Source of the DNA: a virus
IMG/VR virus record: IMGVR_UViG_3300033075_001734
Span: 51,692-115,691 of that record
Strand: one strand, 5' to 3'
Length of the DNA: 64,000 nucleotides
A model generated the notes under the pieces. That model had not been told where the DNA came from. It saw nothing but the letters and a program-made list of their open reading frames with translations, and searched no databases. Within the stretch, counting starts at the first letter, position 1. The number at the start of each line of letters is the position of its first letter. The position numbers and the translations under genes were made by a program. This document shows positions 3,390-41,116 of the stretch, in pieces.

Positions 3390-3696
3390 GATAATGAATA
3401 AGGTATTCAATGAAATTAAAGATGATCTTAAACGATATACACGTAATGAGTTAAAACGCTTGTGTAAAATACACAATATTAATACATGGGGATTGAAAAA
3501 ACGCTTATTGAAATTTTGTTAGTGCCTGTTTTGTTTAAAGATTATTTTGAAGCAACACAACGAAAATATCGTGAACAGCAAATAAAAATTTTGAGTAAAC
3601 GTTTGAAATATGGCGGAAAAAAAGAAAAAATGCTGAGAAACGTTTATTGAAATTTGGAGTTGTTTATGATCATAAATTTATTTTGTACATTGGTGG

Positions 3697-4332
3697 GTGA
3701 AAGTTGTGGGAGGCAAAAACAGAAATACATTACGAGCTAAACAACAATTGCATCTTGATTCACTTAAAGATAAAATTATTTTTTGGTATATTGAAGAGAA
3801 ATATACAACTATTCAAATTCAAAAATTAATTTTAGATTTAGGATTTAATTATACGATTGGTCAAATTGGATTTGCAATAACGAGATTTGGTTTAAAACGA
3901 AATAGGGACACAAAAACAGAAACGTTTTTGAATGCGATAAAAAACAGAAAATACAAATTAAAAAATTGTAATCATTGCATAGAAAAATTTTTACCTACGT
4001 CAAACAGTCAACTTTTTTGTCAGAACTGTTCACCGTGTTCTACACATTCAAGAAGAATTAAGAGATACGGTGTTGGGAAACAAGAATTTGATAAAATGTA
4101 TTTTGCGCAAGATGCAAAATGTGGTATTTGTAAATTAGAATTAGATTTAATGAACACAGTAGTTGACCACGATCATATAACATTGTATATTCGTGGATTA
4201 TTGTGTCGCAAGTGTAATTTAAAATTATGCGTTATTGAAGAAAAACAATTTGTAATAAATGCACAAGAATATTTGTCCTTTTATGAAAAAAATCCAAATG
4301 AAAATTTACGTGCAACTTTAAAGAGTAAATAA
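3697..4332 (+). CDS. HNH-family (Endo VII-like) endonuclease, putative homing endonuclease
   Basis: C-terminal CGICK...VDHDHITLYIRGLLCRKCN is the HNH/EndoVII motif (DHDH...RGLLC..CN). It sits immediately upstream of the split dnaE. Confidence 0.65.
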   Translation: MKVVGGKNRNTLRAKQQLHLDSLKDKIIFWYIEEKYTTIQIQKLILDLGFNYTIGQIGFAITRFGLKRNRDTKTETFLNAIKNRKYKLKNCNHCIEKFLPTSNSQLFCQNCSPCSTHSRRIKRYGVGKQEFDKMYFAQDAKCGICKLELDLMNTVVDHDHITLYIRGLLCRKCNLKLCVIEEKQFVINAQEYLSFYEKNPNENLRATLKSK

Positions 4333-6410
4333 TGAGTGAAATAAAAAGTCCTAACACCTTTTTTGGTCTTCATAACCATACGACGTTCAGCACATATGAT
4401 GGACTCGGTTACCCAGATGATCATTTTAAATTCTGCATGGAAAATGGCCTTGATGGTCATGCGATTACAGATCATGGTCATCTCAACAGTTATGCTCATG
4501 CTCAACTTTGGGTTGAAGATTGGAACAAGAAAAACAAAGAGAAACCGTTCAAGTATATTCCTGGCGTTGAAGCGTATTTTCACCCCGATCTTGAACAATG
4601 GAAACGTGACAAAGAAGCATTTGATCAATCAAAAATTGATAAAAAGGCTGCGAATCTTTTAAAGACTAAACAGGAAAAACTTCAATCAAAGTTAATCGCA
4701 GTCACTGACGGTGATGATGAAACCGAAAGCATTGAAATGAGTAATGCTCTCACGGTTGAAGATGAAGAAGAATCAAAGTCTACAAAAAACTTTAATCCTG
4801 TTAACAGAAGACATCACTTAGTTATACTTCCGAAGTCACAGAAAGGCCTTCAGAAAATCTTTGCCGCCGTGAGTAAAGGTTATATGCAAGGGTTTTATCG
4901 ATTTCCTAGAATTGATTCTCGCGTCCTCAAGGAAGCAGGAAAAGATGGCGACTTGGTAGTTTTAAGCGCATGCATCGCTGGGAGTCCTGCTTTTGAAGTT
5001 TTTCAGCAGGTTCAACAAGTGAAATTTGATGAACTGAGTGAAAAACTTCTTGATGATCCTGTGTTACTTGAAAAATGTGTAACATCAATTGGGAACGTAT
5101 ATGACTTAATGACAAGTTGTGTAGGTCAAGGAAATTATTATCTTGAACTTCAATTCAATAAACTTCCTGCACAGAATCTTGTCAATCGTGCGATAATTGA
5201 ATTCGCAAAACGCAGTGGTCAAACAAAACAACTTGTTGTTACTTGCGATGCACACTATTACAATCCTGATGTTTGGCGTGAGCGAGAGATTTACAAGAAA
5301 ATTGGGTTCATGAATTACAAGGACGTAGATCCTAATTCAATTCCAAAATCTCGCGACGAACTAAAGTGTGAACTTTATCCTAAGAATGCAACACAGGTCT
5401 GGGATGAATATCATCGTTCGAAAGCTAATACGTCGTTTTATGATGATGAACTTATTCGTGATGCCATTGAAAGAACTCATGACATTGCTCATAAAGTTAT
5501 CGGCGAAACACCACCAGATAGAACTTCAAAACTTCCTAGCGAAAAATTAGTTCCCAAAGATGAAACTGCATTTCAACATCTTGTAAAACTTTGCAAAGAA
5601 GGAATTGTTAAACGTAATCTCCATAATGATATTCGTTATGTTGAACGTCTCAAAGAAGAACTTGGCGTCATCAAAAAAATGAAGAATGCTGAGTACTTTG
5701 TAACGTATCAAAAGGTTACTGAACTTGCAAGAAAAAGGGTTCTTCTCGGGTGCGGGAGAGGATCTGGTGGGGGATCTTTAATCAATTACGTTCTGTACAT
5801 TACAGATCTCGATCCAATCAAATGGGATCTTCCATTTTCACGCTTTATCTCAGTGTACCGGCAAGGGGCTCCGGATATCGACTGTGTTAACTTTGATCAT
5901 TTAGTCATAATGGCTGATGGGACACATAAATTTGCTGGTGAAATTATGATTGGTGATGAAGTTTTGGGTGGTGATAATAAACCTCACAAAGTTCTTGAAA
6001 CATGGATGCGAGGTTCAAAACATGGCGAATTCGCATTGGAAATTTTTGTAAAAGCAGACAATGAAATATATGGTTGTATTGACGTCGTGCCAAATCATAA
6101 ATTCATTACAAATAATGGTGATATCGTAAAAGCAAATGAACTTAAGGTCGGTGATAAATTGATGTCTTCGTCAGAAGTTGAAATCGTTGAAATTAGGTTT
6201 TCAGCAAAAACTGATCAATTGTATGTTGATATCACCGTCGAAGATGATCATCGATTTCATGTAATTCCGTTTAATTGTGTAGTAAATGAATTAGAAATAA
6301 TGAATACGTATTCATATTGTAATGAGATGATTCCAAATACGTTTATTATGTGTGGCGAAGGTGAGAATTATTGCAATGCATCGTGTGAATCAAAGAGGAA
6401 TATTTGGTGA
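4332..6410 (+). CDS. dnaE: DNA polymerase III alpha (DnaE) N-terminal fragment, comprising the PHP domain, the palm start and an intein N-part
   Basis: PHP motif FFGLHNHTTFSTYDGLGYPDDHFKFCMENGLDGHAITDHGHL. The catalytic motif SRFISVYRQGAPDID is interrupted after PDID by CVNFDHLVIMADGT...DDHRFHV, which looks like intein blocks A-F. Confidence 0.85.
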   Translation: MSEIKSPNTFFGLHNHTTFSTYDGLGYPDDHFKFCMENGLDGHAITDHGHLNSYAHAQLWVEDWNKKNKEKPFKYIPGVEAYFHPDLEQWKRDKEAFDQSKIDKKAANLLKTKQEKLQSKLIAVTDGDDETESIEMSNALTVEDEEESKSTKNFNPVNRRHHLVILPKSQKGLQKIFAAVSKGYMQGFYRFPRIDSRVLKEAGKDGDLVVLSACIAGSPAFEVFQQVQQVKFDELSEKLLDDPVLLEKCVTSIGNVYDLMTSCVGQGNYYLELQFNKLPAQNLVNRAIIEFAKRSGQTKQLVVTCDAHYYNPDVWREREIYKKIGFMNYKDVDPNSIPKSRDELKCELYPKNATQVWDEYHRSKANTSFYDDELIRDAIERTHDIAHKVIGETPPDRTSKLPSEKLVPKDETAFQHLVKLCKEGIVKRNLHNDIRYVERLKEELGVIKKMKNAEYFVTYQKVTELARKRVLLGCGRGSGGGSLINYVLYITDLDPIKWDLPFSRFISVYRQGAPDIDCVNFDHLVIMADGTHKFAGEIMIGDEVLGGDNKPHKVLETWMRGSKHGEFALEIFVKADNEIYGCIDVVPNHKFITNNGDIVKANELKVGDKLMSSSEVEIVEIRFSAKTDQLYVDITVEDDHRFHVIPFNCVVNELEIMNTYSYCNEMIPNTFIMCGEGENYCNASCESKRNIW
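5883..6410 (+). mobile_element. intein N-terminal portion (blocks A, B and F) inserted in the DnaE PDxD catalytic motif
   Basis: Begins with Cys directly after PDID. Contains the Hint-domain block F DITVEDDHRFHV. It lacks a canonical terminal HN and ends in a 45-aa Cys-rich tail. Confidence 0.55.
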
Positions 6411-6628
6411 TGAAAATTATATTTGAAACAGAAAAAGATTGGACTAAACGTGTCAAATGCACAAAATGCAATTGTTCTATAGAACTTGACGTTCATGATC
6501 TTGATTACATTTCAAATCGATGTGATGGTGCATCATATCAATGGCAATGTCCTAAATGTAAATATTATACATTTTTGAATGCAACAAAAATTCCCGCCAA
6601 TATAAGATGTATTATACGAGGCCTTTAA
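6404..6628 (+). CDS. small CxxC...CxxC zinc-ribbon protein
   Basis: Motif KCTKCNC...CPKCK. It is a tandem paralog of the next ORF. Confidence 0.4.
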   Translation: MVMKIIFETEKDWTKRVKCTKCNCSIELDVHDLDYISNRCDGASYQWQCPKCKYYTFLNATKIPANIRCIIRGL

Positions 6629-6862
6629 ATGAAAATTATTTCTACACCTAAACTTGAACAATGGTCAAAGCAATCTACGTGTACATCATGTAAAACTGTT
6701 GTTGAACTTGAATATCGTGATTTGCATAGTTTTTATAGCGATCAGCGCGATGGTTCATCATGTCAATGGACTTGTCCAACATGTAAACGAAGCGTATATG
6801 AAAATGCGGAAAACATTCCTTCATATGTAAAAATTGCTTATGCAGATGGGCGCTTGAAATAA
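6629..6862 (+). CDS. small CxxC...CxxC zinc-ribbon protein (paralog)
   Basis: CTSCKTVVELEYRDLH...CQWTCPTCK is co-linear with the previous ORF. Confidence 0.4.
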   Translation: MKIISTPKLEQWSKQSTCTSCKTVVELEYRDLHSFYSDQRDGSSCQWTCPTCKRSVYENAENIPSYVKIAYADGRLK

Positions 6863-6977
6863 TGAAACTTAAAACAATTAATAACATTTTAAGAAAATTT
6901 GGAATTGTGTTGGTAGTTGAAATAGGTGATAATTTTGAACCAATTGTTTTACGTATACAACAAGCGAGGTCATTTAA

Positions 6978-7274
6978 ATGAAACAACAAATGACATTAAT
7001 AAAAGTTACAGACGTAGAGCATCGAATGATTATGGATTTCCGAGAAGGAATGAAACAATATATTCATGATAAAACTGCATCATTTAAGAAATCTTATCAT
7101 GATTATCGATATGCGCATCACTATAAATACAAAAATAAATCATTTTGGATTTTAAGTGAATTTTATTCCAGCGACGAAAATTCCATTGAAATGGTTGACA
7201 ATAAGGAATGGGAACAAGAATATTTAGAAAATATCGTTGTTAACACTGATTATTCGTATTTGTGGAATAAATAA
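6978..7274 (+). CDS. hypothetical protein
   Basis: ORF of 98 aa. Confidence 0.3.
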   Translation: MKQQMTLIKVTDVEHRMIMDFREGMKQYIHDKTASFKKSYHDYRYAHHYKYKNKSFWILSEFYSSDENSIEMVDNKEWEQEYLENIVVNTDYSYLWNK

Positions 7275-7801
7275 TGGCACAGCGAATCATCATGTTGGTT
7301 GGACCAGATCGTTGTGGAAAAACCGAAATCGCCAAAGAGCTTTCAAAGCGAACTGGAATTCCAAGATTTAAAGCATCAACAGAACACGATACGTATCTTA
7401 ACGGATTAGGTGGGTTTTTGAATCAATTACTTTATGCCGATCCTCGTGCATTTGATCTTGCAAAACAAATTGGATTTAGCATGATTATGGACAGGGCATA
7501 TCCATGTGAAAAAGTTTATTCAAAAGTTTTCAACAGAAAAACTGATGAAATGGTTCTTGACATCATGGATAAACGTTGGGCATCGTTGGGAACTAAAATT
7601 GTTATTTGTTATCGATCTTCATACAAGGGAATTGTTGATGATTTGGATTCAAGTATTAATGAAACAGTTCTTGAAAAATTGTCACAGGAATATTTTAATT
7701 TTGCCGCGTGGACGAATTGCGATGTCATGATGTTAAATGTCGATGACGAAAATCTTGATCGTGAAGTAACTGAAATAATGAATTGGTTGGAAAGAGAATA
7801 A
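7274..7801 (+). CDS. P-loop nucleotide/nucleoside kinase-like protein
   Basis: Walker A motif MLVGPDRCGKTEIAKEL at the N-terminus, in the size range of dNMP/dN kinases. Confidence 0.45.
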   Translation: MAQRIIMLVGPDRCGKTEIAKELSKRTGIPRFKASTEHDTYLNGLGGFLNQLLYADPRAFDLAKQIGFSMIMDRAYPCEKVYSKVFNRKTDEMVLDIMDKRWASLGTKIVICYRSSYKGIVDDLDSSINETVLEKLSQEYFNFAAWTNCDVMMLNVDDENLDREVTEIMNWLERE

Positions 7802-8481
7802 TGGTTAAAATCACAAATTATGATGATGGGTTTTTTGATGATGGTCGAAAGTATTTTGCTCATGGACTTTTAGCATGGAAAACATTCGTTGAAAATGACT
7901 TAAAAGCAACATCATTAGCAGATTTCGGATGTGGTCAAGGTGATTGGCTTGAACCTCTCAAAAATCTTATTCCCGTTTGGGGTTGTGACGGATACGCCGA
8001 TCCGAATAATCTCAGAATTGATATTGCTGATTTTAGAAAAATTGACATAGGTACAGTTGATCCTAAGACGCTTGATGTCGGGAAACGTGATGTTGTAATG
8101 TCACTGGAAGCAATGGAGCACGTGTCAAACGACAAGGAATCAAATTTTCTCGATTGTCTATTAACGCCAGATCCTAGGCTTGTTGTCTTTGGTGTCGCTT
8201 CTGGTTATGGAATTTATGATCCTAATCAGGTAAAAATCAATCGTTTGGGTGAAGCCATTCCAGGTGGTCCAAAATGGCATGCTCAATTTGGTAGACATCA
8301 TGTTAATTGTCAACCTGTTGATGTTGTCGTTGATAAAATGTTAGCACGTGGTTATACGGTTGATATTCCACTATCTGCAAAATTTGCTTCATTGCGGGTG
8401 CCTTCTGGAAAAGGCATCCGAACAAAGTATGCATTTGCTGGGTTTTATAGAAAGAATACAAGGGTCTATAAAAAACTGTAA
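7783..8481 (+). CDS. class I SAM-dependent methyltransferase-like protein
   Basis: Motif I-like LADFGCGQGDWLEPL and a downstream acidic VVMSLEAMEHV motif. Confidence 0.4.
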   Translation: MVGKRIMVKITNYDDGFFDDGRKYFAHGLLAWKTFVENDLKATSLADFGCGQGDWLEPLKNLIPVWGCDGYADPNNLRIDIADFRKIDIGTVDPKTLDVGKRDVVMSLEAMEHVSNDKESNFLDCLLTPDPRLVVFGVASGYGIYDPNQVKINRLGEAIPGGPKWHAQFGRHHVNCQPVDVVVDKMLARGYTVDIPLSAKFASLRVPSGKGIRTKYAFAGFYRKNTRVYKKL

Positions 8482-8518
8482 CAGTGTAATTGTTAACGTA
8501 TTAAGACTAGAATAACTT

Positions 8519-9256
8519 ATGCTTCATTCTTTCCTAAATACAGGAAAGTCAGTTGTTGTTCATAACACTGACGTATCTGATCGCGATAAAGTCCTTGATG
8601 AATTGCGAGATTTCTTCGGGTATGAAAATGTAGTACCTATTTCAAATTTTAACTTAATGAAGGTAAAATCACTTCTTAAGGATCTTGCAAAGTTTTATGG
8701 CGTTCCTTATGAAGAAGTGAATCATGCAACGAGAACAGTTGAACAATCTGTTCGTTCTGCAACCATGAAACACGGTGATGACAAGAATTTATTTGTATTG
8801 ACATATGAAGAAGCATTAAAGTACGACAAACCGTTTAGTGACTTCATTGAAAAATACCCAGAAGTCGGTAAATCAATGTTGGTTTTGTTCAAACAAAACC
8901 GAAGTTTAAGTCGTCATGCGGGTGGAATTCTTGTATGTGATGACTTACCTAACAAAATGCCTTTAATTACGTCATGCGGTGAACCTCAAACACCGTGGGT
9001 CGAAGGTGTAAGTTCAAAACATCTTGAGAAAATTGGAAATTTTCTCAAGCTCGATATTTTAGGGTTAGAAACGCTTCGCCTTATTGAACGTACTATTGAA
9101 TTAATTATCAAAAAACAAGGTGGAATAATTCAGTTTGAAATTGACGGGAAAGTAAACAGAGTTGTTGGATCAAAAATGATCATGTTGAGTGATGGATCAA
9201 CAAAACGTGCCGATCAATTAAAGGAAAATGATGATATCATGTCCATTTTGCAATAG
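8519..9256 (+). CDS. dnaE: DnaE middle fragment, beginning with a short intein C-part (MLHSFLNTGKSVVVHN)
   Basis: SVVVHN|T is a canonical intein block G / +1 Thr junction. The sequence TDVSDRDKVLDELRDFFGYENVVPIS...GVPYEEV...HAGGILV...LKLDILGLETLRLIE that follows matches the DnaE palm, which would rejoin PDID. Confidence 0.8.
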   Translation: MLHSFLNTGKSVVVHNTDVSDRDKVLDELRDFFGYENVVPISNFNLMKVKSLLKDLAKFYGVPYEEVNHATRTVEQSVRSATMKHGDDKNLFVLTYEEALKYDKPFSDFIEKYPEVGKSMLVLFKQNRSLSRHAGGILVCDDLPNKMPLITSCGEPQTPWVEGVSSKHLEKIGNFLKLDILGLETLRLIERTIELIIKKQGGIIQFEIDGKVNRVVGSKMIMLSDGSTKRADQLKENDDIMSILQ

Positions 9257-10247
9257 AGAATTTAATAAATCACTTAAAAATCATTTAACAAAACATTTTG
9301 AAGGTGAAAATTCTATGATTCGAGCATATGAAAAACATATGAATAAATCTGTTGTTGATTTATATGTCAATTGTGGTAAAAGTGCCACTGAAATTGCGAA
9401 TTTAATTCGTAGCGAATGTAATTGGATTAAACCGTTAAAAGGACATGTTCTTAAATTTCTAGATGATAACAATGTTGTTCGTCGAAAAACGTCGGAAGCG
9501 ATGAAATCGTATTATACACAAAATGATGTATGGAATAAAGATAAAACAAAATATGATCATGAAAGTATAATGAAATATGCTAATTCACGTATGGGTGAAA
9601 ATAATCCAATACATAAAACAACGTTTGAACAACGATCATATTCAAACGCTTTCTCAAAACTTAAACGAGAAGGTCGTTTAGAAGAATTAGAAAAATTAAA
9701 AAGCGATATATCTGACGGGGTCACAAATTGGTTTTCTCAAGACCAAAATTATGAAAAATATATTGCGGCTTATGATGCGGCTCGGCCAAAACAATTAACT
9801 AATGTAAGATTGGGCGTACAAAATTATCACAAACGTTATGCTGACTTGGGATTACCATCGCCAAATAGAATCGCCTGGATTAGTAATCCTGAACTAATTG
9901 TTAAGAGTGCCCTCGAACAACTCAACCTGAAATTCCAGCATCAATGGTATTATGCTCGTGCGTGTTTTGATTTTTATCTTCATGATTACAAAACGATCAT
10001 TGAAGTCAACGGAACATATTGGCACGGTCACGAATCTGTTTTTGAAAATGATGAAATGATTCATCCGAACAAGAAAATTTCAATCAAAGATATTAAAGCT
10101 CGTGACGAACAGAAACGAGTGTATCTTATTGAAAACGGGTTTAAGTTAATAACATTGTGGGATAATGAGTTTAAAACAACAGAAGACGCTGTTAAAATTC
10201 TCGTTGAAAAATTAGAAATTAGTAATGTCGAAAATAACATCTCTTAA
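9228..10247 (+). CDS. endonuclease with an N-terminal zinc finger and a C-terminal Vsr/DUF559-like PD-(D/E)xK domain (putative homing endonuclease)
   Basis: N-terminal CPFCNREFNKSLKNHLTKHFE. C-terminal FDFYLHDYKTIIEVNGTYWHG...ARDEQKRVYLIENGFKLITLWDNEF resembles the Vsr-like fold. It interrupts dnaE. Confidence 0.5.
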   Translation: MMISCPFCNREFNKSLKNHLTKHFEGENSMIRAYEKHMNKSVVDLYVNCGKSATEIANLIRSECNWIKPLKGHVLKFLDDNNVVRRKTSEAMKSYYTQNDVWNKDKTKYDHESIMKYANSRMGENNPIHKTTFEQRSYSNAFSKLKREGRLEELEKLKSDISDGVTNWFSQDQNYEKYIAAYDAARPKQLTNVRLGVQNYHKRYADLGLPSPNRIAWISNPELIVKSALEQLNLKFQHQWYYARACFDFYLHDYKTIIEVNGTYWHGHESVFENDEMIHPNKKISIKDIKARDEQKRVYLIENGFKLITLWDNEFKTTEDAVKILVEKLEISNVENNIS

Positions 10248-11745
10248 AAAAGTTTCAACTACGTTTGAAGACATCAAATTGTGGTATGAACAAAACATGT
10301 CACCTGATGTCATAAACTTTGATGATCCTGAACCATTTAAAGTTTATTCTGATTCACGTTGGTGCGGCGTATTTCAACTAACCTCTGTGGGAGCTCAGAA
10401 GCTCTTTACAAAGGCAAGGCCAAAATCGATTATCGATATTGCAGCATTGACATCTGTTTATCGACCTGGGCCTTTGTCTGCAAACGTTGATAAACTTTGG
10501 TTGAAACATGAATTTGAATCTTATGATTGGGGTCATCCTCTTATCAATGAAACACTAAAAGAAACTCGAGGATTATGCGTGTTTCAGGAAAGCGTAATGT
10601 CTTTAGCTAATAAAGTTGCTGGATTCCCGCTTGATGAAACTGACGAGGTCCGTCGGGCAATTATGAAGCGTAGCATTTCAGGTGGTGCTGCTGCAATTCA
10701 GAAAATGAAAGAACTTGAAGACTCTTTCGTTAATGGTTGTATGAACAATGGTGTTCCTCAAAATACTGCAACCAAAGCTTATGAGACTATATGTCATTTC
10801 TCTGGATATGGGTTCAATAAAAGTCATGCAGTCGCCTATGCAATCTGTTCATATTGGTGTGCATGGCTTTTAACATATCACGAGGAAGAATGGGTAACTG
10901 CATATATTGAATCAATGTCAAATTCACCAGATAAAAAAGAAAAAGCATTTGGTGAAGTTAAACAATTAGGTTATGAAATTGTTCCCATTGATATCAATCA
11001 TGCCCAGATTGGTTGGACTGTTCTTCCCGGCAAAAAATTGATGCCAAGTCTTTTGACATGTAAAGGTATTGGCGAATCAGCAGCCGAAGAAGTTATTGCA
11101 AATAGACCTTATGAAAATATTGAGCAAGTTCTTTGGAACGAAGATGGAACTTGGAAACCATCAAAATTCAATAAACGTGGTCTTGAAGCATTAATAAAAG
11201 TGGGTGCATTTGCTTCACTTGATTGTGTTGGTGAAGATAAACTTTTTGAGAGTTATCGTCATATGTATGAGGTCATCATTGAAAACTCAAATGCCATTAA
11301 AAAATCATCTAAAAAAGATCCGAGTATTGGCCGTAAGACATTCTTCGAATTAACTCGGGCCCTTCGACCAATGCCTGAATGGTCTAGACGAGAGTTAGTT
11401 GAGGCATATGTTGACGTGTTTGGAAGTTTGGATGTTTCCAAACTGTTAGAACAGGATGTTCTTAAGAAACTTGAAGACAAGAACGTCATGTCAATTGACA
11501 ACTGGGAACAAAAGGGCTTTCACTGGTTTGTTGTTCAGAGTGTTGTAACAAAGAAAACAAAAACAGGAAAAGCGTACTTAATGATTAAGGGTCTTGGTCC
11601 GATGGGAAAGTCTTATAGAATTAATGTGTGGGGTTGGAAAGAAGAAAATGAACCGCTTGAAGAATTTGATGTTATTGTTGCTGAACTTGATAAAAATGAA
11701 TATGGATTTTCAACAACGTCATGGCGATGTAAGGTGATTGCATGA
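10225..11745 (+). CDS. dnaE: DnaE C-terminal fragment (fingers and OB-fold region)
   Basis: Motifs GVFQLTSVGAQKLF...ALTSVYRPGPL and GYGFNKSHAVAYAICSYWCAWLLTYH (the FNKSHA.AYA DnaE motif). Confidence 0.85.
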   Translation: MSKITSLKKVSTTFEDIKLWYEQNMSPDVINFDDPEPFKVYSDSRWCGVFQLTSVGAQKLFTKARPKSIIDIAALTSVYRPGPLSANVDKLWLKHEFESYDWGHPLINETLKETRGLCVFQESVMSLANKVAGFPLDETDEVRRAIMKRSISGGAAAIQKMKELEDSFVNGCMNNGVPQNTATKAYETICHFSGYGFNKSHAVAYAICSYWCAWLLTYHEEEWVTAYIESMSNSPDKKEKAFGEVKQLGYEIVPIDINHAQIGWTVLPGKKLMPSLLTCKGIGESAAEEVIANRPYENIEQVLWNEDGTWKPSKFNKRGLEALIKVGAFASLDCVGEDKLFESYRHMYEVIIENSNAIKKSSKKDPSIGRKTFFELTRALRPMPEWSRRELVEAYVDVFGSLDVSKLLEQDVLKKLEDKNVMSIDNWEQKGFHWFVVQSVVTKKTKTGKAYLMIKGLGPMGKSYRINVWGWKEENEPLEEFDVIVAELDKNEYGFSTTSWRCKVIA

Positions 11746-12254
11746 ATTCTCGACCAAAATTAGATGATGACAATGTAAGAAAGCTTGCCATTGAAAATCT
11801 TTTTGAAAAAAAACTTAAAGATTATTTCAAAGAATTTGACGGCGATCTTGATGAAGAATTCATAAAAGAAACTAAAAATGAATTATTTCTAGCAACTGAA
11901 TATGAACATGACGCGTATGATATATGCAAACGTCTTGAAAATAATTTTTTTTGGAACGTTGAAAGTGAACTGGTTCATTTGATGGAAACATATTTTTCTT
12001 ATCAATATAATGCTCACGACAAGATTGTCAAAGAATGGGTCAAAGAAAATAATATTCAATTGAAGTATTTTGAAGGTGATGAAGTAACGTATCAAAATAC
12101 ACGAAAACATCAAGAACATGGCAAAATAATTTCACGTGATCATAAAAAAGCAACATATACAATTTTTTCTAAACACCTTGGCCACGTTGAACAAGGCATT
12201 GGAACGCATGGAATAATTGTCAATTGCGAAGATATTATTGATTTGAAACTTTAA
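11742..12254 (+). CDS. hypothetical protein
   Basis: ORF of 170 aa with an ATGA overlap to dnaE-C. Confidence 0.35.
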   Translation: MNSRPKLDDDNVRKLAIENLFEKKLKDYFKEFDGDLDEEFIKETKNELFLATEYEHDAYDICKRLENNFFWNVESELVHLMETYFSYQYNAHDKIVKEWVKENNIQLKYFEGDEVTYQNTRKHQEHGKIISRDHKKATYTIFSKHLGHVEQGIGTHGIIVNCEDIIDLKL

Positions 12255-13189
12255 ATGATTTCAATGCTTGAAACAGTTATATCTTTAAGACCTATGACTT
12301 CATATTCAGTTTCGTATCCAACAAAAGGTTTAACTCTATAAAGCCCTTTGGGACCTGATATAAATTGTTTTTTATTTTTTTTCGTATACGCTGTTAAAAT
12401 TATAGAATACGTATTTTTATTTTTTGCATTTTTGAGCGCAAATTTTTCAGCAATTGTTTTTGATATGGACCACGAGCTAGCACCTTGTTTTGGTTTAAAG
12501 ATAAATTCTTTTTTAACAATCATCTTAGATGTGTTAACATCAAGTAATTTACTAATCCATTTTTCGGTTACACCCATTCCTCTATAAACAGCGTTGTGTT
12601 CAGGTTCATTAAATATATCATTATATTGATTTGCCAATAGAATTTTATGAATTGTATTGGCATTTTTCTTGTTTAACGGGTTTCCTCTAAAGTGTTGAAT
12701 AAGTGCTAAATAAATTTGTTGTTCAGCTTTTGTATTTTTTTCGAATGGAACTTTAGATGTTTCTATTCGATCTGCGGCAAAAGCATATTTGCCAAATATA
12801 TTTTTATTGTCGTTAGGAGCAAGCTTAATTTTATTAAGCGCCGTATCAAAACGACCTGACTCTTCGATTTTATTTAAATTTTGAAGACATTGTTTAAGTT
12901 GATAAAAAGTACTTTCTATATCAAAATAATCTGATTCATTGTCTTCCAAATATGCTTTAAATGAGCTCATATATTCAAACAGCGACTTATAATCATTTAT
13001 TGTTTTAGCAAACTCTTTCCATATAAAATACGTTGAGCAAGAAAGTAATATATTGACGAAGTATTCTTCGTCATTATGAGCTTTTTCAAGAAGCGATTTA
13101 AGTTTAAAAATTATCTTCTCATATAATGAAAGCGCTTTTTCTTTCATTTCGTTAAGTTCTAATTCACTATTTTCATCTATTGAAGGCAT
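12251..13189 (-). CDS. putative R-S-E type ADP-ribosyltransferase (Alt/Mod-like)
   Basis: C-terminal half carries VYRGMG (R motif), SSWSIS (STS-like motif) and YETEYEV (ExE motif) in the correct order. Confidence 0.4.
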   Translation of the reverse strand: MPSIDENSELELNEMKEKALSLYEKIIFKLKSLLEKAHNDEEYFVNILLSCSTYFIWKEFAKTINDYKSLFEYMSSFKAYLEDNESDYFDIESTFYQLKQCLQNLNKIEESGRFDTALNKIKLAPNDNKNIFGKYAFAADRIETSKVPFEKNTKAEQQIYLALIQHFRGNPLNKKNANTIHKILLANQYNDIFNEPEHNAVYRGMGVTEKWISKLLDVNTSKMIVKKEFIFKPKQGASSWSISKTIAEKFALKNAKNKNTYSIILTAYTKKNKKQFISGPKGLYRVKPFVGYETEYEVIGLKDITVSSIEII

Positions 13190-14207
13190 TTTTTACTCTT
13201 CTGTACTGTTCGTCGTTTAGTTTTAATAATTTTGCTTGTTTTTCAATTGTGAGGTCTTTTGAGATTTTTCTGTCAACGCTTTTTGTTAAACCTTTTCTAA
13301 AATTCTCTAAAATGGTTGATAGCATTTCCTGTTTATTATATGCTCGATTTAATTCAAGTGTATTTGAGAGACCCACAATACCGTTAGCAAGTTCATCAAT
13401 TGAAACAGAATCATGCTTAAGTCCTGGGAATTGTTTTAATTTTTTATCTATAACACAATTTTCGCCAAGTAAATAATAAGCGATATCAAGAAGGAATGTA
13501 TTGAAATTTGTGGAAATATTTGAAATACTAACGCCCATTCTTTCATTTCCTCCTACACGAACTCCATTTTTCATTCGAACCAGAACGCCTTCTGTTCCTA
13601 TTGCAAGATTCAAGAAATCACCAAGAGCCTTGTAAAGAGTTCCTGTTACATAACCTTTAATTCCTCTTTCTGGAACGTATCTGCCTTTCATCCAATTTGA
13701 ATATTTTGGGTGTGTTATTGTTGTATCAACTTGTACAAGCGTTCCATTTACATCAACGACAATTTGTAAAGCATTTCCCTTAAGTGTTAATGGGACATTA
13801 ACATTTTTGGGTGATTGTGTTTGAAGAAATCTTATCAATAAATTTGAATAATCCCGCTTTGATTTTGCATCAGATTTTCTCTGGTGATTTGTGTCATCTG
13901 AATCATAATTCACGGGAAACGAAACCAAATAATCAACGTCACCATATGTTGTATCAGGTTTTTCAATTGCGTCGAGTTCTGCATACGTTGAAGATCCCGA
14001 AGGGCCCACGAGAACAACGGGTTCAAACCCTTCGCGTTCAAGCCAGATATTCCAATCATCAATGAAATTTTCGTATAACTTACAAGCGTCTTTTACCAAT
14101 TGAGGTGTTAATTCAACGCGTTTTTCAATTGGAAGTTTTAAACCTCCTTCATTTAACATGTGATTAATCACATTACGTAACTGTTTAATAGAAATATGCA
14201 TCGTCAA
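13173..14207 (-). CDS. hypothetical protein with a capsid-targeting-like N-terminus; possible nucleotidyltransferase
   Basis: N-terminus ISIKQLRNVINHMLNEGG. GPSGSS...DVDYLV is weakly like Pol-beta-type GS...DxD. Confidence 0.3.
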   Translation of the reverse strand: MTMHISIKQLRNVINHMLNEGGLKLPIEKRVELTPQLVKDACKLYENFIDDWNIWLEREGFEPVVLVGPSGSSTYAELDAIEKPDTTYGDVDYLVSFPVNYDSDDTNHQRKSDAKSKRDYSNLLIRFLQTQSPKNVNVPLTLKGNALQIVVDVNGTLVQVDTTITHPKYSNWMKGRYVPERGIKGYVTGTLYKALGDFLNLAIGTEGVLVRMKNGVRVGGNERMGVSISNISTNFNTFLLDIAYYLLGENCVIDKKLKQFPGLKHDSVSIDELANGIVGLSNTLELNRAYNKQEMLSTILENFRKGLTKSVDRKISKDLTIEKQAKLLKLNDEQYRRVKNAFNR

Positions 14208-14257
14208 TAAGTAATTTGTTTTGTGAAACTGTGAAATTAAATTGATTATTATGAATT

Positions 14258-14764
14258 ATGAGTAATTGTTTGTTTTGTGACAATGAAACAATATCTGGGA
14301 CAAATTTTTGTGATTGGGATTGTCATGTTAAAATGGCACAAAAATTAGGCGGAAAAGACCATCGCCCAAATAAGTTGCCTGTTAATTGTATTATGGCAGA
14401 TGGGACAATGCTTGAATGTGAACATGGTGATCATCCAAGTTATAAATTTCCAATCATGGTTGAAATTCCTGAAAAAGATCGTAAAGCACATTTTATGTAC
14501 GAACAGTCAGACGGTCATACGTATGAACTTTCTGACGAAGACATTAAAAATGAATCAGTAAATGAGAGACACGCACTGATATTTTTTGATGATACGGTTG
14601 CGTTAACGTTGTTTGAACACGTGTATTATATGTGGTCATTAAGCAGTGGATATTGCATACGAGACCCTTTTGCATTTAAGGGTGAAAAATCGTATTGGAA
14701 AATTTGTGATAGTGATTTAGAAAAAATTCGTAATGAAACTTTCAAAGTACAATTTACATTATAA
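14258..14764 (+). CDS. hypothetical Cys-rich protein
   Basis: Motif CLFCDNE...CDWDCH at the N-terminus. Confidence 0.35.
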   Translation: MSNCLFCDNETISGTNFCDWDCHVKMAQKLGGKDHRPNKLPVNCIMADGTMLECEHGDHPSYKFPIMVEIPEKDRKAHFMYEQSDGHTYELSDEDIKNESVNERHALIFFDDTVALTLFEHVYYMWSLSSGYCIRDPFAFKGEKSYWKICDSDLEKIRNETFKVQFTL

Positions 14765-14896
14765 TTTGTGGGCTAAAAATTATTTTTTCAATAGGTTGGA
14801 TTTTATTTGTCCTGGTGAATTGATTGTTGATGATATCAGCGGTTATAACGAATATGGATTAGTAATCTCTAACATAAACAATGTCATCCAAATTCT

Positions 14897-15139
14897 TTGG
14901 GCAATCGTTTAATGATTTATCCTGGCAGTTTATGCATATCACGTAGATGTATTGTGTTATTGAAAAACAAAAGAATGGTGAATCAATATTTCGGAGTGAT
15001 TTCTGCTAAATCACCATTTTTTATTGTCAGCATTGAAGAATTAACTTTTGATCGGTATTCATTATATGTAATAACATCTTCAATGCAAAAAATGGGTTGG
15101 ATTTATGATCTAAGTTCTAGCTTTGATTTGGTGGTATGA
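14897..15139 (+). CDS. PGDL/GWI small-protein family member
   Basis: Carries YPGSLCI and GWIYDL. Confidence 0.4.
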   Translation: MGNRLMIYPGSLCISRRCIVLLKNKRMVNQYFGVISAKSPFFIVSIEELTFDRYSLYVITSSMQKMGWIYDLSSSFDLVV

Positions 15140-15178
15140 AAATGCGAACATTTGATAAGTTATTCACGATGAAAAAAC

Positions 15179-15430
15179 ATGATATATCCCGGTGATTTAT
15201 GTATTGTACGAAGATTTAATGGGTCTGATTCATTTATCCCAGTTTATGATAAAAATTTCATCTTTTCTAAGAATAAAGTATGCATAGGGGGCTTTAAACA
15301 TATGTGTCTTGTTATTTGTTCGTTAACAATTAAGGGTGATTCATATTCTTCGTATTATATCATATCAGATAATGGTCTAACAGGCTGGATTTACGAATCA
15401 AAGTTTTTGATGAATACAAAATCTGTGTAG
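15179..15430 (+). CDS. PGDL/GWI small-protein family member
   Basis: Carries YPGDLCIV and GWIYES. Confidence 0.45.
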   Translation: MIYPGDLCIVRRFNGSDSFIPVYDKNFIFSKNKVCIGGFKHMCLVICSLTIKGDSYSSYYIISDNGLTGWIYESKFLMNTKSV

Positions 15431-15477
15431 TTTAATAGTAATGTTATTATGCATTCTAGTGAATTAAAATAAAATAA

Positions 15478-15699
15478 ATGAAAATTTATCCCGGTATGTT
15501 GTGTAAAATTGTTGGAGCTTTTGAAAATGACATACACATAATGATGCTTGATTGCGAAGATTATACTGATGCTTTTTTAGTTAAAAAAAATTCTTTAGCA
15601 TTAATTTTAACACAACATGGAGATGGGATGTTAGTGTTGTTAACGTCAACAAAACAAATTGGAACTATACATAGTTGTGTTTGTGATATTATAGGTTGA
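15478..15699 (+). CDS. PGDL/GWI small-protein family member
   Basis: Carries YPGMLCKIV and IGTIH. Confidence 0.4.
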   Translation: MKIYPGMLCKIVGAFENDIHIMMLDCEDYTDAFLVKKNSLALILTQHGDGMLVLLTSTKQIGTIHSCVCDIIG

Positions 15700-17024
15700 A
15701 TATGAAAAAGAAATTATTGATTCAAACACAGTTATCAAATTATAACTCACAAGGAAAATTTGATCTTGCCTGTGATAGCGGCTGGAATATGATGATGGGA
15801 AGAGTTAGAGAAATGCTCAAACTTAATCCCGATCTTTACATTGATATCATGGGGCCATATTACGATTATGATGGTCAAAATCAACTTGTAGAAGAACCCT
15901 GGAAAGTTAACAAAGATATTTTTGATTCTGGTCGTGTGCTATACATTCAACATTGGGTCATTCCAAATGCGCTTATAACAAGATATGATTTTGACTATAA
16001 GAATACTGATTATCAATTAAGACTTGAAGAACACAAAAAAGACGTGAGTTTAAGATATGATGCCGTGTACATTAATGATCCAATGCATCTTCGTAACTTT
16101 AAAGCATTGTTTTATTCATCTGGTGGGTATCGTCCAAAATTTTATGTTCATTCACACTTCGTAGATAATCCAACTTGTCCAAAATTTCCACTTGAATCTT
16201 CGTTATGGTTAGGACAATGCGAAGCAGCAATTCGCGCCGACTATAATTTTTGGCAATGTGAATCTGCGATGAACGTATTTTTTGATGAGATGAAAGATTT
16301 CTACAGAGAAGAACTTGTTGAATACACAAAATTGAAATCAATTCCTTGGGATGATGGTTATTCATCTACTGAAATTTCATCCGTAGTTGATGTAAATAAT
16401 CTACGATATCATAATATGATTGATGAATTCAATGTTAAAACATCTGATAAATGTGTTATTTTTGTTCCTAATCGTATTGGAGGAAAAGGAAGATCAAGTG
16501 ATTATACGAATTGTGGAAAATTCATGTTTGAAATTTTGCCAGAATTACGAAAGTTACGTGATGATTTTGTTGTGATTGCAGGAAATCCAAGTCAAAGATT
16601 TGTGAATGATGAACTTGAAACACTTTGTGGTGAAAATGGGTATATAAAGTTAGTCCCAGAAACTTTTAATAGAGATGAATATAAGTACATTGTTTCAAGG
16701 TGTGATATTGTCGCAGGTCTTTATGATCAAGATAGCTATGGTTCGACCGCCTCGAGAGAATGCGTTGATTTAGGTTGTGTACCTTTATGGATAGATAACT
16801 TTGAATATTCTGTGCTTTCACGAGAAGCAGGATATACAGAATATTTGGCAAAGCCTGATTTTTCTGATATTGTGAGTAAGACAAGTCGATTAATTGATTT
16901 GGTAAAAGCACGCGATCCAAAATTGTTTGTCACTAAAAAACACTTACAGCGTGTCATTAGAGAAAAGTGTTCATATGAAAGTACAACACCTAAAATGATG
17001 CAAATAATGAATTTGATGCCTTGA
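15696..17024 (+). CDS. putative GT-B glycosyltransferase
   Basis: C-terminal domain VIFVPNRIGGKG...VIAGNP...STASRECVDLGCVPL resembles GT1/GT4 donor-binding motifs. It lies between sugar-nucleotide enzymes. Confidence 0.4.
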   Translation: MNMKKKLLIQTQLSNYNSQGKFDLACDSGWNMMMGRVREMLKLNPDLYIDIMGPYYDYDGQNQLVEEPWKVNKDIFDSGRVLYIQHWVIPNALITRYDFDYKNTDYQLRLEEHKKDVSLRYDAVYINDPMHLRNFKALFYSSGGYRPKFYVHSHFVDNPTCPKFPLESSLWLGQCEAAIRADYNFWQCESAMNVFFDEMKDFYREELVEYTKLKSIPWDDGYSSTEISSVVDVNNLRYHNMIDEFNVKTSDKCVIFVPNRIGGKGRSSDYTNCGKFMFEILPELRKLRDDFVVIAGNPSQRFVNDELETLCGENGYIKLVPETFNRDEYKYIVSRCDIVAGLYDQDSYGSTASRECVDLGCVPLWIDNFEYSVLSREAGYTEYLAKPDFSDIVSKTSRLIDLVKARDPKLFVTKKHLQRVIREKCSYESTTPKMMQIMNLMP

Positions 17025-25675: not shown

Positions 25676-26524
25676 ATGAAACAAATTACGGTAAGTGAAA
25701 AAGCAATAAGAGATCTTGTACGTGAAGCTTTAGAAGGGGACGTTGTTATTGATGTCAATGATGTCATTGATCCATCTGCCGCACAAACAAATCCGATCAA
25801 CGCCGAATTTGTTCCTACAACTAGACCCGAACTTGACGTAGCTGTTAAACAGTTAACAAAAGATATCCCGGGTGATAGAATTTCGCCCGCGTATAAATCA
25901 ATTAAAGATGCTATTAAAGCTGACGAAGTTCAGCGTGAAAAGGATGACAAAATGAAAGCAGATGATAAAAAGAAAGCAGTTGAAGAAACTGTTCGCCGCG
26001 CCGTTAGAAAAACATTAAGTGAAATTAATCCTCGATTTGATACGTCATATTCAGGCATGGATTACAGTTCTGGTGATGATGATGATGATGAAGATGATCT
26101 TGATTCTGATAAACCGAAACGAACGTATAAAGCGACAGCCTTAGGAAATATGGCAGACGTTGATGGTGCCTCATTTGAAGAGATTGCAACAGAATTAGGG
26201 TTCTCAGTTGCAGGGGCGAAACAGGCTGTAGATAAGGCGCTAGAAAAAGCCCAATTCATTGCAGCAACTGACTCAGATGAAATGGAAATTATTGTTCTTA
26301 CTACAATGTCAGATTATATCAAAATGCTTGCAAAGACAGGCGAATTGTCATCTGCTGATGTGACACTTTTGAAAGATCACCCAGCGATTGTTCGTGAACT
26401 TGACGGATTCCGTGATTATCTTCATAATTCAATTCGCAGAGCACGAAAAGCAACTGCGGTTGTTAATCCTTTGGGAGAAGCGAAAATGCCTCGCCGAAGT
26501 GGTAAACAGTTACCACGTTCATGA
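25676..26524 (+). CDS. acidic protein with a capsid-targeting-like N-terminus
   Basis: N-terminus MKQITVSEKAIRDLVREALEG and a DDDDDEDDLDSD stretch. Confidence 0.4.
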   Translation: MKQITVSEKAIRDLVREALEGDVVIDVNDVIDPSAAQTNPINAEFVPTTRPELDVAVKQLTKDIPGDRISPAYKSIKDAIKADEVQREKDDKMKADDKKKAVEETVRRAVRKTLSEINPRFDTSYSGMDYSSGDDDDDEDDLDSDKPKRTYKATALGNMADVDGASFEEIATELGFSVAGAKQAVDKALEKAQFIAATDSDEMEIIVLTTMSDYIKMLAKTGELSSADVTLLKDHPAIVRELDGFRDYLHNSIRRARKATAVVNPLGEAKMPRRSGKQLPRS

Positions 26525-40099: not shown

Positions 40100-41116
40100 A
40101 TGAGTAAGTTTTGGCCAAGTATTGAGAATTTTCACACCCTTCGCAAAGGAACACAAAAATATCCACACCTTTTAGGATCTTCACCAAAAGTAACGTATAA
40201 AGCAAAGGTGAAATTGCACGGAACAAACGCAGGTATTGAACTTTTTGATTGTATCAATGGCCCAACTGTTCGTGCGCTATCACGAACGCAAATTATTTCA
40301 CCAGGAAATGATAATGCTGGGTTTGCTGCGTGGGTATGGGGAAATAAAGAAAAATTTGTTTCGCTTTGTCATCCTGGTCGAACCATTGTGATTAATGGCG
40401 AATGGGTTGGTCCTGGAATTATGAAAGGAACAGCTGTGAATAAACTTGATTCAAAGAAATTCATGGTGTTTGCTGTCACAATTTATCAAGACGATGATGT
40501 TATTGGATTTATTGTGGATCCTGAAGATCTTGGTAGTTTGCTTGAACCTGTTTCAGATATCGTTCATGTTATTCCTTGGTATGACTCTGGGAAAGAATAC
40601 GAAATCGATTTTGAAAAATCAGGTGAAGAATTACAATGTCTTGTTGAAGATATCAACAAAGAAGTACTTCAAGTTGAAGCATGTGATCCTTTCATGAAAT
40701 CACAATTTCAACTTGAGGGAATTGGTGAAGGTCTTGTGTTTTACCCTATCGATGAAGAGCATAGTGATTATGAATCATTTTCAAATCTTTGTTTTAAGGC
40801 CAAGGGTGAAAAACACCAAAGTGTTGCACACACAAAACCTGCTCAAATTGATCCGTCTATAGCAAATAGTTTAACAGAATTTGCTCATCTCGTCTTACCT
40901 GTTTCACGCCTCGAACAAGGTGTATATGCAGTTAACAATGGTGTTCTTGAATTTGATAACAAGAAAATCGGACTTTTTCTAAAATGGATCAATGAAGACT
41001 TGTTTAAAGAAACACAAGGTGAACTTGAAGTAAGCGGTCTTAATTCAAAAGATGCATATCGAAAATGTAGTGAAGTTGCTAGAACTTGGTATCTTTCACA
41101 AATGAAAAAACTATGA
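40100..41116 (+). CDS. RNA ligase 2 (Rnl2)-like nucleotidyltransferase
   Basis: YKAKVKLHGTNAGI matches T4 Rnl2 REKIHGTNFS, including the KxHGTN lysine-adenylate motif. Confidence 0.55.
   Translation: MSKFWPSIENFHTLRKGTQKYPHLLGSSPKVTYKAKVKLHGTNAGIELFDCINGPTVRALSRTQIISPGNDNAGFAAWVWGNKEKFVSLCHPGRTIVINGEWVGPGIMKGTAVNKLDSKKFMVFAVTIYQDDDVIGFIVDPEDLGSLLEPVSDIVHVIPWYDSGKEYEIDFEKSGEELQCLVEDINKEVLQVEACDPFMKSQFQLEGIGEGLVFYPIDEEHSDYESFSNLCFKAKGEKHQSVAHTKPAQIDPSIANSLTEFAHLVLPVSRLEQGVYAVNNGVLEFDNKKIGLFLKWINEDLFKETQGELEVSGLNSKDAYRKCSEVARTWYLSQMKKL

Follow-up and report, generated by a model that had tools for sequence, protein, structure and literature searches.

How does a phage obtain a working replicative polymerase when its dnaE gene lies in three pieces with other genes between them? 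The question is raised by a 64,000-nucleotide stretch of viral DNA, hereafter the window (positions 51,692 to 115,691 of IMG/VR virus record IMGVR_UViG_3300033075_001734), in which an initial annotation had seen a replication gene densely colonised by free-standing homing endonuclease genes in the manner of T4 seg and mob. An open reading frame (ORF) check of the window recovered every ORF of that annotation in its place; two features are missing from the annotation, an intein domain that ends dnaE fragment 1 and an intein C-terminus with which fragment 2 begins. The fractured-gene framework (Dassa et al. 2009, PMC2677866) is a closer fit to the locus than the T4 seg/mob pattern, and this dnaE is probably a fractured gene of that kind, its product made as three polypeptides by one tightly packed array of same-strand genes. 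Its first break (5883-8566) is likely to be a split intein, divided between blocks F and G and sited after ...GAPDID, whereas the second (9125-10227) holds no intein: a 1.1-kb cassette there comprises a 43-residue tail, an endonuclease gene and a new start codon.

A phage dnaE in three pieces

The coding capacity for DnaE is split over three ORFs on the same strand, and their Pfam domains are collinear. The pieces are as follows, with coordinates in the window and lengths in amino acid residues:

4332-6410, + strand: dnaE fragment 1, with PHP and DNA_pol3_alpha profile positions 1-109 of 260 (Pfam)
4332-5882, + strand: N-extein of fragment 1, residues 1-517, PHP and first part of the palm, ending ...RQGAPDID
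5883-6278, + strand: probable split-intein N-fragment core, residues 518-649 of fragment 1, with Cys1, block B VVPNHKF and block F YVDITVEDDHRFHVIPFN
6279-6410, + strand: C-terminal tail of the probable N-fragment, 43 residues, with a four-Cys module YC-x11-C-x7-C-x3-C, then stop
8519-9256, + strand: dnaE fragment 2, DNA_pol3_alpha profile positions 110-260 of 260 (Pfam)
8519-8566, + strand: probable split-intein C-fragment, 16 residues, MLHSFLNTGKSVVVHN (block G), followed by the +1 Thr
8567-9124, + strand: extein of fragment 2, residues 17-202, remainder of the palm / NTPase domain, ending ...ERTIELIIKKQGG
10225-11745, + strand: dnaE fragment 3, 506 residues, DNA_pol3_finger and HHH_6 (Pfam), that is, finger, HhH and C-terminal domains

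Relatives were drawn from IMG/VR and metagenome loci (labelled L) and from protein clusters (labelled P), and family calls used the curated cut-offs of Pfam, PHROG profiles and the gathering threshold of Rfam. Among deposited phages no close relative was found by megablast, and all tblastn matches are less than 35% identical. Insert-free alleles of the kind that the initial annotation envisaged do exist in more distant relatives: the DnaE of L001 is uninterrupted at 1211 residues, and the N-extein of fragment 1 is collinear with it. Both break points in the window are defined because the L001 sequence runs across them, reading ...KGAPDID^TDLADRDKV... at the first junction and ...RTIELILIKEGN^PSPTFKDVKAW... 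at the second (a caret marks the junction here and below).

The closest informative relative, L019, shares 82-86% DNA identity with the window and differs from it block by block. It has the first break and its cargo genes, as in the window, and carries an additional 78-residue ORF directly before fragment 2. It has only 194 bp opposite window 3549-4343, where the window carries an endonuclease VII-like (EndoVII) ORF, and 9 bp opposite window 6869-7271 (blastn), where the window has a segment with a 98-residue ORF; its fragments 2 and 3 are fused, with 36 bp (L019 14678-14713) opposite window 9115-10260. Given that L019 lacks all three, the EndoVII ORF, the cassette of the second break with its Vsr-like gene, and one small ORF of the first gap are, on this comparison of sequences, variable inserts. 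The gene-order comparison proposed by the initial annotation thus bears out its central claim in respect of the EndoVII ORF and the Vsr-like cassette, two variable acquisitions by a replication gene of free-standing endonuclease genes.

The locus is not an assembly artefact, since at least 20 contigs, drawn from several metagenomes, have an identical gene order. Relative to L019, the ratio of nonsynonymous to synonymous substitution rates (dN/dS) is 0.09 for the extein of fragment 1, 0.05 for that of fragment 2 and 0.06 for fragment 3. Stop and start codons overlap or abut across the array (4329-4334, 6408-6412, 6626-6631, 7271-7276 and 7798-7803; examples are TGATG, TAAATG and TAATAATG), an arrangement suggestive of coupled translation between the dnaE pieces and the genes inserted among them.

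The first break: a probable split intein and a gap filled with cargo

The case for an intein at the first break is made at both of its edges. At the end of fragment 1, Pfam recognises a Hint domain (PT-HINT and Hom_end_hint, residues 525-645) that is near-complete at 132 residues, with blocks A, B and F present, and Cys518, its first residue, stands exactly where L001 continues with TDLADRDKV after GAPDID. Invariant in 14 homologues that are 28-76% identical are Cys1, His72 of block B, Asp116, His123 and Phe125 of block F, Pro129 and Phe130; in the TxxH motif of block B it is the Thr position that varies, being Val or Pro within this intein family (VVPNHKF). The N-part profile (A1) aligns to residues 16-120 of the 128-residue gp41-1 intein, through block F, where LIDIEVSGNHLFY lies opposite YVDITVEDDHRFH, and stops before block G. 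An AlphaFold2 model of residues 518-692 of fragment 1 has a predicted local distance difference test score (pLDDT) above 88 to about residue 140 and matches solved mini-inteins with template-modelling (TM) scores of 0.73-0.79 (target-normalised) and root-mean-square deviations of 2.3-3.1 Å. The dN/dS of the intein core against L019 is 0.19, and a class-3 intein is ruled out by the conserved Cys1 and block F Asp.

Beyond the core, homologues of the N-part share further conserved segments, PF(N/D) and ..GY, and some members have a Cys4 module. In the window this module (6330-6400) belongs to the Cys-rich tail, for which dN/dS against L019 is 0.38 and AlphaFold2 confidence is low; its pattern, YC-x(10-11)-C(G)-x(7-8)-C-x3-C, is kept in L019, L021 and P0003-P0005. 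The module is also similar to the FCS-like fingers of the endonucleases. A candidate degenerate block G, the CVVN of fragment 1 as part of a tandem duplication, was dropped, the relatives keeping only PF(N/D) and varying thereafter.

At the other edge, fragment 2 begins MLHSFLNTGKSVVVHN^TDVSDRDKV, its ATG preceded one codon upstream by a TAA stop at 8513-8515, and the junction HN^TDVSDRDKV corresponds to GAPDID^TDLADRDKV of the uninterrupted L001. Heads of 16-21 residues with the pattern M-x(1-6)-HSF-x(5-6)-VVVHN^T are found in L019, L021, L024/27, L025/26 and about 30 protein clusters, and the ending ...VVVHN^T, which comprises the block G His-Asn and the +1 Thr, is conserved in about 30 clusters, the HN^T also in five sequenced locus pairs. 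A divergent N-part (P0016) and a divergent head (P0309, ...FWVGSHN) also appear to sit on one contig, a pairing drawn solely from the identical 48,115-base longest contig reported for both. Taken alone, the 16-residue C-part is predicted by AlphaFold2 to be disordered. The predicted spliced product of 517 + 229 = 746 residues can be set beside the naturally fused fragment 1+2 proteins of relatives, which have 745-746.

The position of the split is what sets this intein apart. A 2026 paper gives natural split sites only at the position of the endonuclease domain and near the N-terminus (PMC13014065), and splits near the C-terminus (S11) appear in a 2025 review only as engineered ones (PMC11766414); because these sources give other natural sites, a natural split between blocks F and G is new within the searchable intein literature. 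A wider proposal, which we regard as evenly poised between right and wrong, is that such inteins form a third natural class of split intein (F/G split, C-fragments of 16-21 residues), active in trans-splicing and widespread in phage DnaE (at least 30 clusters), and that the tail and head of the second break may have been reused as a heterodimerisation module of an unspliced polymerase.

Between the two edges lies a gap of 2.1 kb with five or six cargo genes:

6410-6862, + strand: two tandem zinc-ribbon paralogues, 72 and 77 residues, both matching phrog_2834 (unknown function)
6869-7271, + strand: 403-bp segment absent from L019, overlapping a 39-residue called gene (6862-6981) and nearly all of a 98-residue ORF (6978-7274)
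7274-7801, + strand: P-loop (deoxy)nucleoside monophosphate kinase-like gene, 175 residues, PHROG thymidylate-kinase-like match at E 7e-6, weak AAA/dNK matches in Pfam
7801-8481, + strand: putative S-adenosylmethionine-dependent methyltransferase, 226 residues, weak matches to Pfam Methyltransf_23/12/25

These genes are under purifying selection (dN/dS 0.035-0.22), and no recognisable endonuclease was found among the ORFs of the gap (6404-8481) by Pfam, PHROG or similarity comparison. The zinc-ribbon pair is a true pair of paralogues, as first annotated (39.7% identity, E 2.5e-15), and both members occur in L019, with dN/dS of 0.08 and 0.15. The kinase and methyltransferase of the same annotation exist as ORFs, their family matches being weak: the best for the methyltransferase ORF, which is 93% identical in L019 with dN/dS 0.035, is Methyltransf_23 at E 3e-4, below cut-off. 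The ORFs of the 403-bp segment have no Pfam or PHROG match. The zinc-ribbon ORFs, the 98-residue ORF and the Cys-rich tail were also considered as endonuclease remnants, a candidacy rejected on their lack of similarity to any endonuclease.

The kinase offers a glimpse of how the gap was filled. It lies inside the split-intein gap in both the window and L019, and an orthologue, 41-55% identical, directly follows dnaE in six relatives (L001, L002, L003, L004, L008 and L012), so that the gene in the gap has been relocated there; no flanking repeats that would account for such a move were found around the cargo, short matches being at chance level only. In L021, L024/27 and L025/26 the gap of the first break holds instead an orthologous Vsr-like endonuclease of 540-577 residues on the minus strand (L024 8702-10420, L025 1121-2740, L021 8867-10600), with a C-terminal extension of about 200 residues past the Vsr-like core. 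The state of the gap in the window fits the step of the Dassa model in which the endonuclease is lost and the halves then drift toward being uncoupled.

The second break and the free-standing endonucleases

The cassette of the second break replaces 12 codons of L019 at the boundary of the Pfam palm and finger domains. Its principal features, and those of the two endonuclease-like ORFs outside the dnaE pieces, are these:

9125-9256, + strand: tail of fragment 2, 43 residues, beta-rich, IIQFEIDGKVNRVVGSKMIMLSDGSTKRADQLKENDDIMSILQ, without catalytic residues
9228-10247, + strand: I-Bth0305I / Vsr-like homing endonuclease gene, free-standing, 339 residues, N-terminal C2H2-like finger, motif IEVNGTYWH
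3697-4332, + strand: endonuclease VII / HNH-type ORF, free-standing, 211 residues, FCS-like Cys4 finger, Pfam Endonuclease_7 PF02945
26531-27256, + strand: GIY-YIG / NUMOD1 free-standing endonuclease-like ORF, 241 residues, 15 kb past dnaE

The tail, whose 43 residues are encoded at 9125-9253 ahead of a stop codon for fragment 2, is not present in uninterrupted DnaE. In more than 60 clusters a tail of this kind comes after the motif LGLETLRLIER..I...K.GG; there are two subtypes, alignable with each other over their full length. Among solved structures the tail profile (A3) best matches the final 45 residues of the N-fragment of the NrdJ-1 intein (8UBS 64-109, E 2e-5), and an hhalign comparison of the tail profile with an intein profile returned a probability of 91%. 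The tails have no nucleophile, no block A and no T..H of block B, a Cys seen in some type-B tails not being conserved, and the AlphaFold2 model of the tail has five strands with pLDDT 83-90. The tail is thus probably a catalytically dead relic of the last third, or C-terminal lobe, of a canonical intein N-fragment; an intein relic that is conserved, non-catalytic and, according to the model, folded, standing at a break with no intein, goes beyond the published type of fractured gene.

On the far side of the cassette, fragment 3 has a new start codon and a head of about 10 residues, MSKITSLKKV, that is not in uninterrupted homologues. Similar heads occur in L020, L021, L025 and L036, and those that read MSKITSL, MPKVTSV, MPKIKSL, MAKVVAN and MAIVQSI are similar to the opening strand of the C-part in canonical inteins. 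What lies between tail and head differs from locus to locus: a 599-residue Vsr-like protein in L021, a GIY-YIG protein in L020 and several unrelated ORFs in L025. In L019, where the site is uninterrupted, it reads ...GAATTAATTCTTCAAAAAGAGCGTCGAAAAAATGGCGAAGTAAAATCAGTTGTAACGTTTGAAGA..., and the linker QKERRKNGEVKSVVTF is about six residues longer than the IKEGNPSPTF usual in uninterrupted DnaE; to judge from its sequence, it looks like a healed scar in which the start of a type-B tail and the end of a head were left when the cassette was deleted.

In the window the place between tail and head is taken by the Vsr-like gene, whose start codon lies inside the codons of the tail. By itself it gives a weak Vsr/DUF559 match (E 1e-5, Pfam), while a profile of 38 homologues matches I-Bth0305I (3R3P, E 4.8e-8) and Vsr (1CW0, E 1.7e-7), and the gene matches PHROG homing-endonuclease families at E 1e-8 to 1e-13, so that the zinc-finger and Vsr-type ORF first annotated between fragments 2 and 3 is confirmed by both routes. 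The core residues D248, E259, G262 and H266 are invariant. The gene is missing from L019, and a homologue 45% identical to it occupies the same dnaE site in L036.

Directly upstream of dnaE, the EndoVII-like ORF of the initial annotation likewise stands (Pfam E 1.9e-13, 50.6 bits against a cut-off of 23.6; PHROG endonuclease VII E 2.4e-22). Its stop codon overlaps the dnaE start codon, L013, L014 and L018 carry the ORF whereas L019 lacks it, and a search of IMG/VR found no close relatives of it. It is, we think, probably a third and independent insertion. The GIY-YIG ORF matches a PHROG homing endonuclease (E 2.9e-26), its Pfam scores falling just below the cut-offs (GIY-YIG 19.8 against 22.6 bits, NUMOD1 20.6 against 22.8 bits). 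It is present in all near-identical contigs, with no allele lacking the gene among them, and its upstream neighbour (window 25676-26524) has no relatives in IMG/VR. Four independent Logan contigs (L032-L035) stop at 5560-5562, about window 27235, inside this ORF, and the shared ends may reflect heterogeneity of the population or a repeated endonuclease sequence. Of the three endonuclease types that had been placed in or beside the replicase gene, the EndoVII and Vsr-like ones therefore hold their place, whereas the GIY-YIG ORF is 15 kb past dnaE.

Mechanism, alternatives and wider meaning

A sequence of events can be proposed from these parts. Fragment 1 ends in a near-complete 132-residue Hint domain with a 43-residue Cys-rich tail; the 16-residue peptide that opens fragment 2 brings the final strand together with the His-Asn, and the Thr nucleophile comes next. 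The 16-mer would dock into the open Hint domain, and class-1 protein trans-splicing would join the exteins into a 746-residue product with release of the intein pieces. The Vsr-like homing endonuclease that relatives carry in this gap would have been lost from the window and its place taken by cargo genes, which may be an early step toward uncoupling the halves of the gene. At the second break there would be no splicing; the 746-residue product and fragment 3 would assemble non-covalently, possibly through tail and head, and the Vsr-like endonuclease would spread the cassette into uninterrupted alleles.

Several points weigh against this account. Trans-splicing and assembly are read from sequence and model, and slow or absent activity is common among engineered splits of the S11 type (PMC11766414). 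In block B the motif is VVPNH, with the Thr substituted; an HxF motif occurs in both halves (DDHRFH in the N-part, HSF in the C-part), leaving the identity of the block F His and the packing of the two segments ambiguous; and the PF(N/D) segment and Cys-rich tail of the N-part have no explained role. The route of the kinase into the gap likewise lacks an explanation, with no flanking repeats to provide one. At the second break, heads are known from five loci only, and the part that the tail may play in assembly is argued from analogy, conservation and a predicted fold. Finally, homing is a prediction for all three endonuclease-like ORFs, and the EndoVII ORF could have another function.

Some of these oddities would be accommodated if the intein halves of the first break still bound each other but no longer spliced, serving as a non-covalent clamp for fragments 1 and 2. 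The unusual split position, the missing block B Thr and the doubled HxF motif are what such a clamp might display, engineered S11 splits often perform poorly, and the second break indicates a lineage that tolerates unspliced pieces. Yet Cys1, the block F Asp and His, the terminal His-Asn and the +1 Thr are all kept across homologues as little as 28% and at most 76% identical, and since a mere clamp would need none of these residues, we consider this alternative unlikely, if serious enough to be kept in view. It is slightly harder still to maintain that every interruption is a T4-like seg/mob insertion, that the DnaE pieces reassemble non-covalently and that the Hint domain is an inactive passenger. 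In its favour, the window has free-standing ORFs of the EndoVII, Vsr-like and GIY-YIG types, there are documented cases of split phage genes whose products assemble with no splicing (PMC3045599, PMC2677866), and no intein occupies the second break; the seg/mob pattern of the initial annotation does describe that break and the upstream EndoVII ORF. It does not describe the gap at 6404-8481, which has no endonuclease and is flanked exactly by intein halves, whose catalytic residues are invariant and whose core has a dN/dS of 0.19, and as an explanation of the whole locus it is improbable.

Repair of the second break at the RNA level, be it by translational bypassing or by a group I intron that escaped recognition and contains the endonuclease ORF, would make a single polypeptide of fragments 2 and 3. 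It has a precedent in that Vsr-like endonucleases do occur in group I introns, I-Bth0305I among them (PMC3239194; PMC2677866), and the ORF does occupy nearly the whole insert. Nevertheless, a search for group I introns at either break gave no Rfam match at the gathering threshold or at E up to 10 (the entire 64-kb window contains no Rfam family and no transfer RNA), there is no space for an intron core outside the ORFs, and regulatory hairpins of the kind reported for fractured genes, sought upstream of the endonuclease and fragment starts, fold no better than shuffled sequence (z 0.2-1.0). Moreover, more than 60 clusters conserve the read-through tail at the protein level, a fold is predicted for it, and a start and head of its own are conserved in fragment 3, all of which makes such repair very improbable. 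A decaying, non-functional dnaE or a chimeric assembly might be suspected of any gene in three pieces with unrelated genes between them, but the same order on at least 20 contigs from several samples, three intact ORFs with extein dN/dS of 0.05-0.09 against L019 and the presence of all catalytic domains reduce that suspicion almost to nothing.

A probable trans-splicing first break and a presumably unspliced second one can each be placed among known systems. In fractured genes a split intein is combined with a free-standing GIY-YIG or Vsr-like endonuclease, three DnaE loci being included; N-parts have 88-105 residues and C-parts 33-54, and all three coding regions lie on one strand (PMC2677866). 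As there, a phage DNA-synthesis gene is broken in place in the window, its halves keep their order, strand and intein halves, and relatives (L003, L020, L021, L024 and L025) hold Vsr-like or GIY-YIG genes between the halves. Unlike there, the N-part has 132 residues and a 43-residue tail, the C-part has 16, the gap contains 2.1 kb of cargo in place of an endonuclease, and the gap endonuclease of relatives (L021, L024 and L025) is on the opposite strand. With its 16-residue C-fragment and a gap that holds cargo and no endonuclease, this probable natural split intein goes beyond the published type. The second break, with its tail and head, resembles the intein-less SbcD-like fracture of the same study, which has a C-tail of 25 residues and an N-head of nine (PMC2677866).

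In its split before the last beta-strand, and in the use of a short C-terminal peptide to complete a near-complete Hint domain, the intein of the first break is like the engineered S11 inteins (Ssp GyrB S11, Ssp DnaX S11, Ter DnaE3 S11 and shortened Npu DnaE; PMC11766414, PMC2664965). Those are artificial, with C-fragments of 6 residues or otherwise shortened, whereas the C-fragments of the present family are natural, have 16-21 residues and an extra conserved HSF, and its N-part has the additional conserved PF(N/D) and ..GY and sometimes a Cys4 module. AceL-TerL, GOS-TerL, VidaL and PolB16 are, similarly, natural split inteins of phages or metagenomes with one very short fragment and a non-canonical site, but their short fragment is the N-part (15-37 residues, S1/S2; PMC13014065) and here it is the C-part.

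For the second break the nearest precedent is nrdA of Aeromonas phage Aeh1, split by mobE, in which the tails are essential for assembly and no splicing occurs (Crona et al. 2011, PMC3045599). In both cases a free-standing endonuclease splits an essential gene and new C- and N-terminal tails arise, with no RNA or protein splicing there and none proposed here. The window differs in gene and enzyme (dnaE and a Vsr-like endonuclease), and its tail, probably a descendant of an intein N-fragment, is kept in many phages irrespective of what fills the gap. The endonuclease itself shares its catalytic core and the motif IEVNG-YW with I-Bth0305I (PDB 3R3P), a Vsr-like homing endonuclease found in a group I intron of a phage recA (PMC3239194) and its best profile match (E 4.8e-8); the window gene is free-standing, not intron-encoded, and has a different N-terminal DNA-binding region.

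More broadly, DnaE is a hot spot in these phages, the homologues examined having at least 6 intein sites. In L021 (IMGVR_UViG_3300037010_002844, 309 kb) dnaE at 4675-16108 is in at least 7 ORFs with five split inteins and one intein-less break, and its gaps hold three Vsr-like endonuclease genes. L020 and L003 have canonical fractured sites with Vsr-like endonucleases of 272-311 residues. In P0011, P0019 and L021 7827-8564 a stretch of six or seven residues is all that separates two inteins, their entire intervening extein being that of ...HN^(S/C)G(A/S)PDID^C....

Elsewhere in the window, an 879-residue ORF at 54861-57500 on the minus strand is major vault protein-like (MVP_shoulder E 4.9e-31, Vault_3 E 1.8e-8, Vault E 2.3e-5), which is unusual in a phage-like genome. 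A 554-residue chaperonin of the Cpn60/GroEL type (49739-51403, + strand; Pfam E 2.1e-59), with an RNA ligase (40100-41116) and an AAA ATPase (48273-49505) near it, suggests a large phage genome.

The implications extend beyond this one locus. C-terminal intein fragments short enough for peptide synthesis are sought by engineers and have been obtained only by artificial splitting (PMC2664965, PMC11766414); a naturally evolved family with a 16-residue C-fragment, if confirmed as such, would provide a new scaffold and many sequence variants for protein engineering. For phage biology, the locus and its relatives show side by side the majority of the stages that have been proposed for the life cycle of a fractured gene, from an intein with an endonuclease in its gap, through loss of the endonuclease and filling with cargo and decay to a non-catalytic tail, to an apparently healed allele, and the life-cycle model is thereby directly testable within a single gene family.

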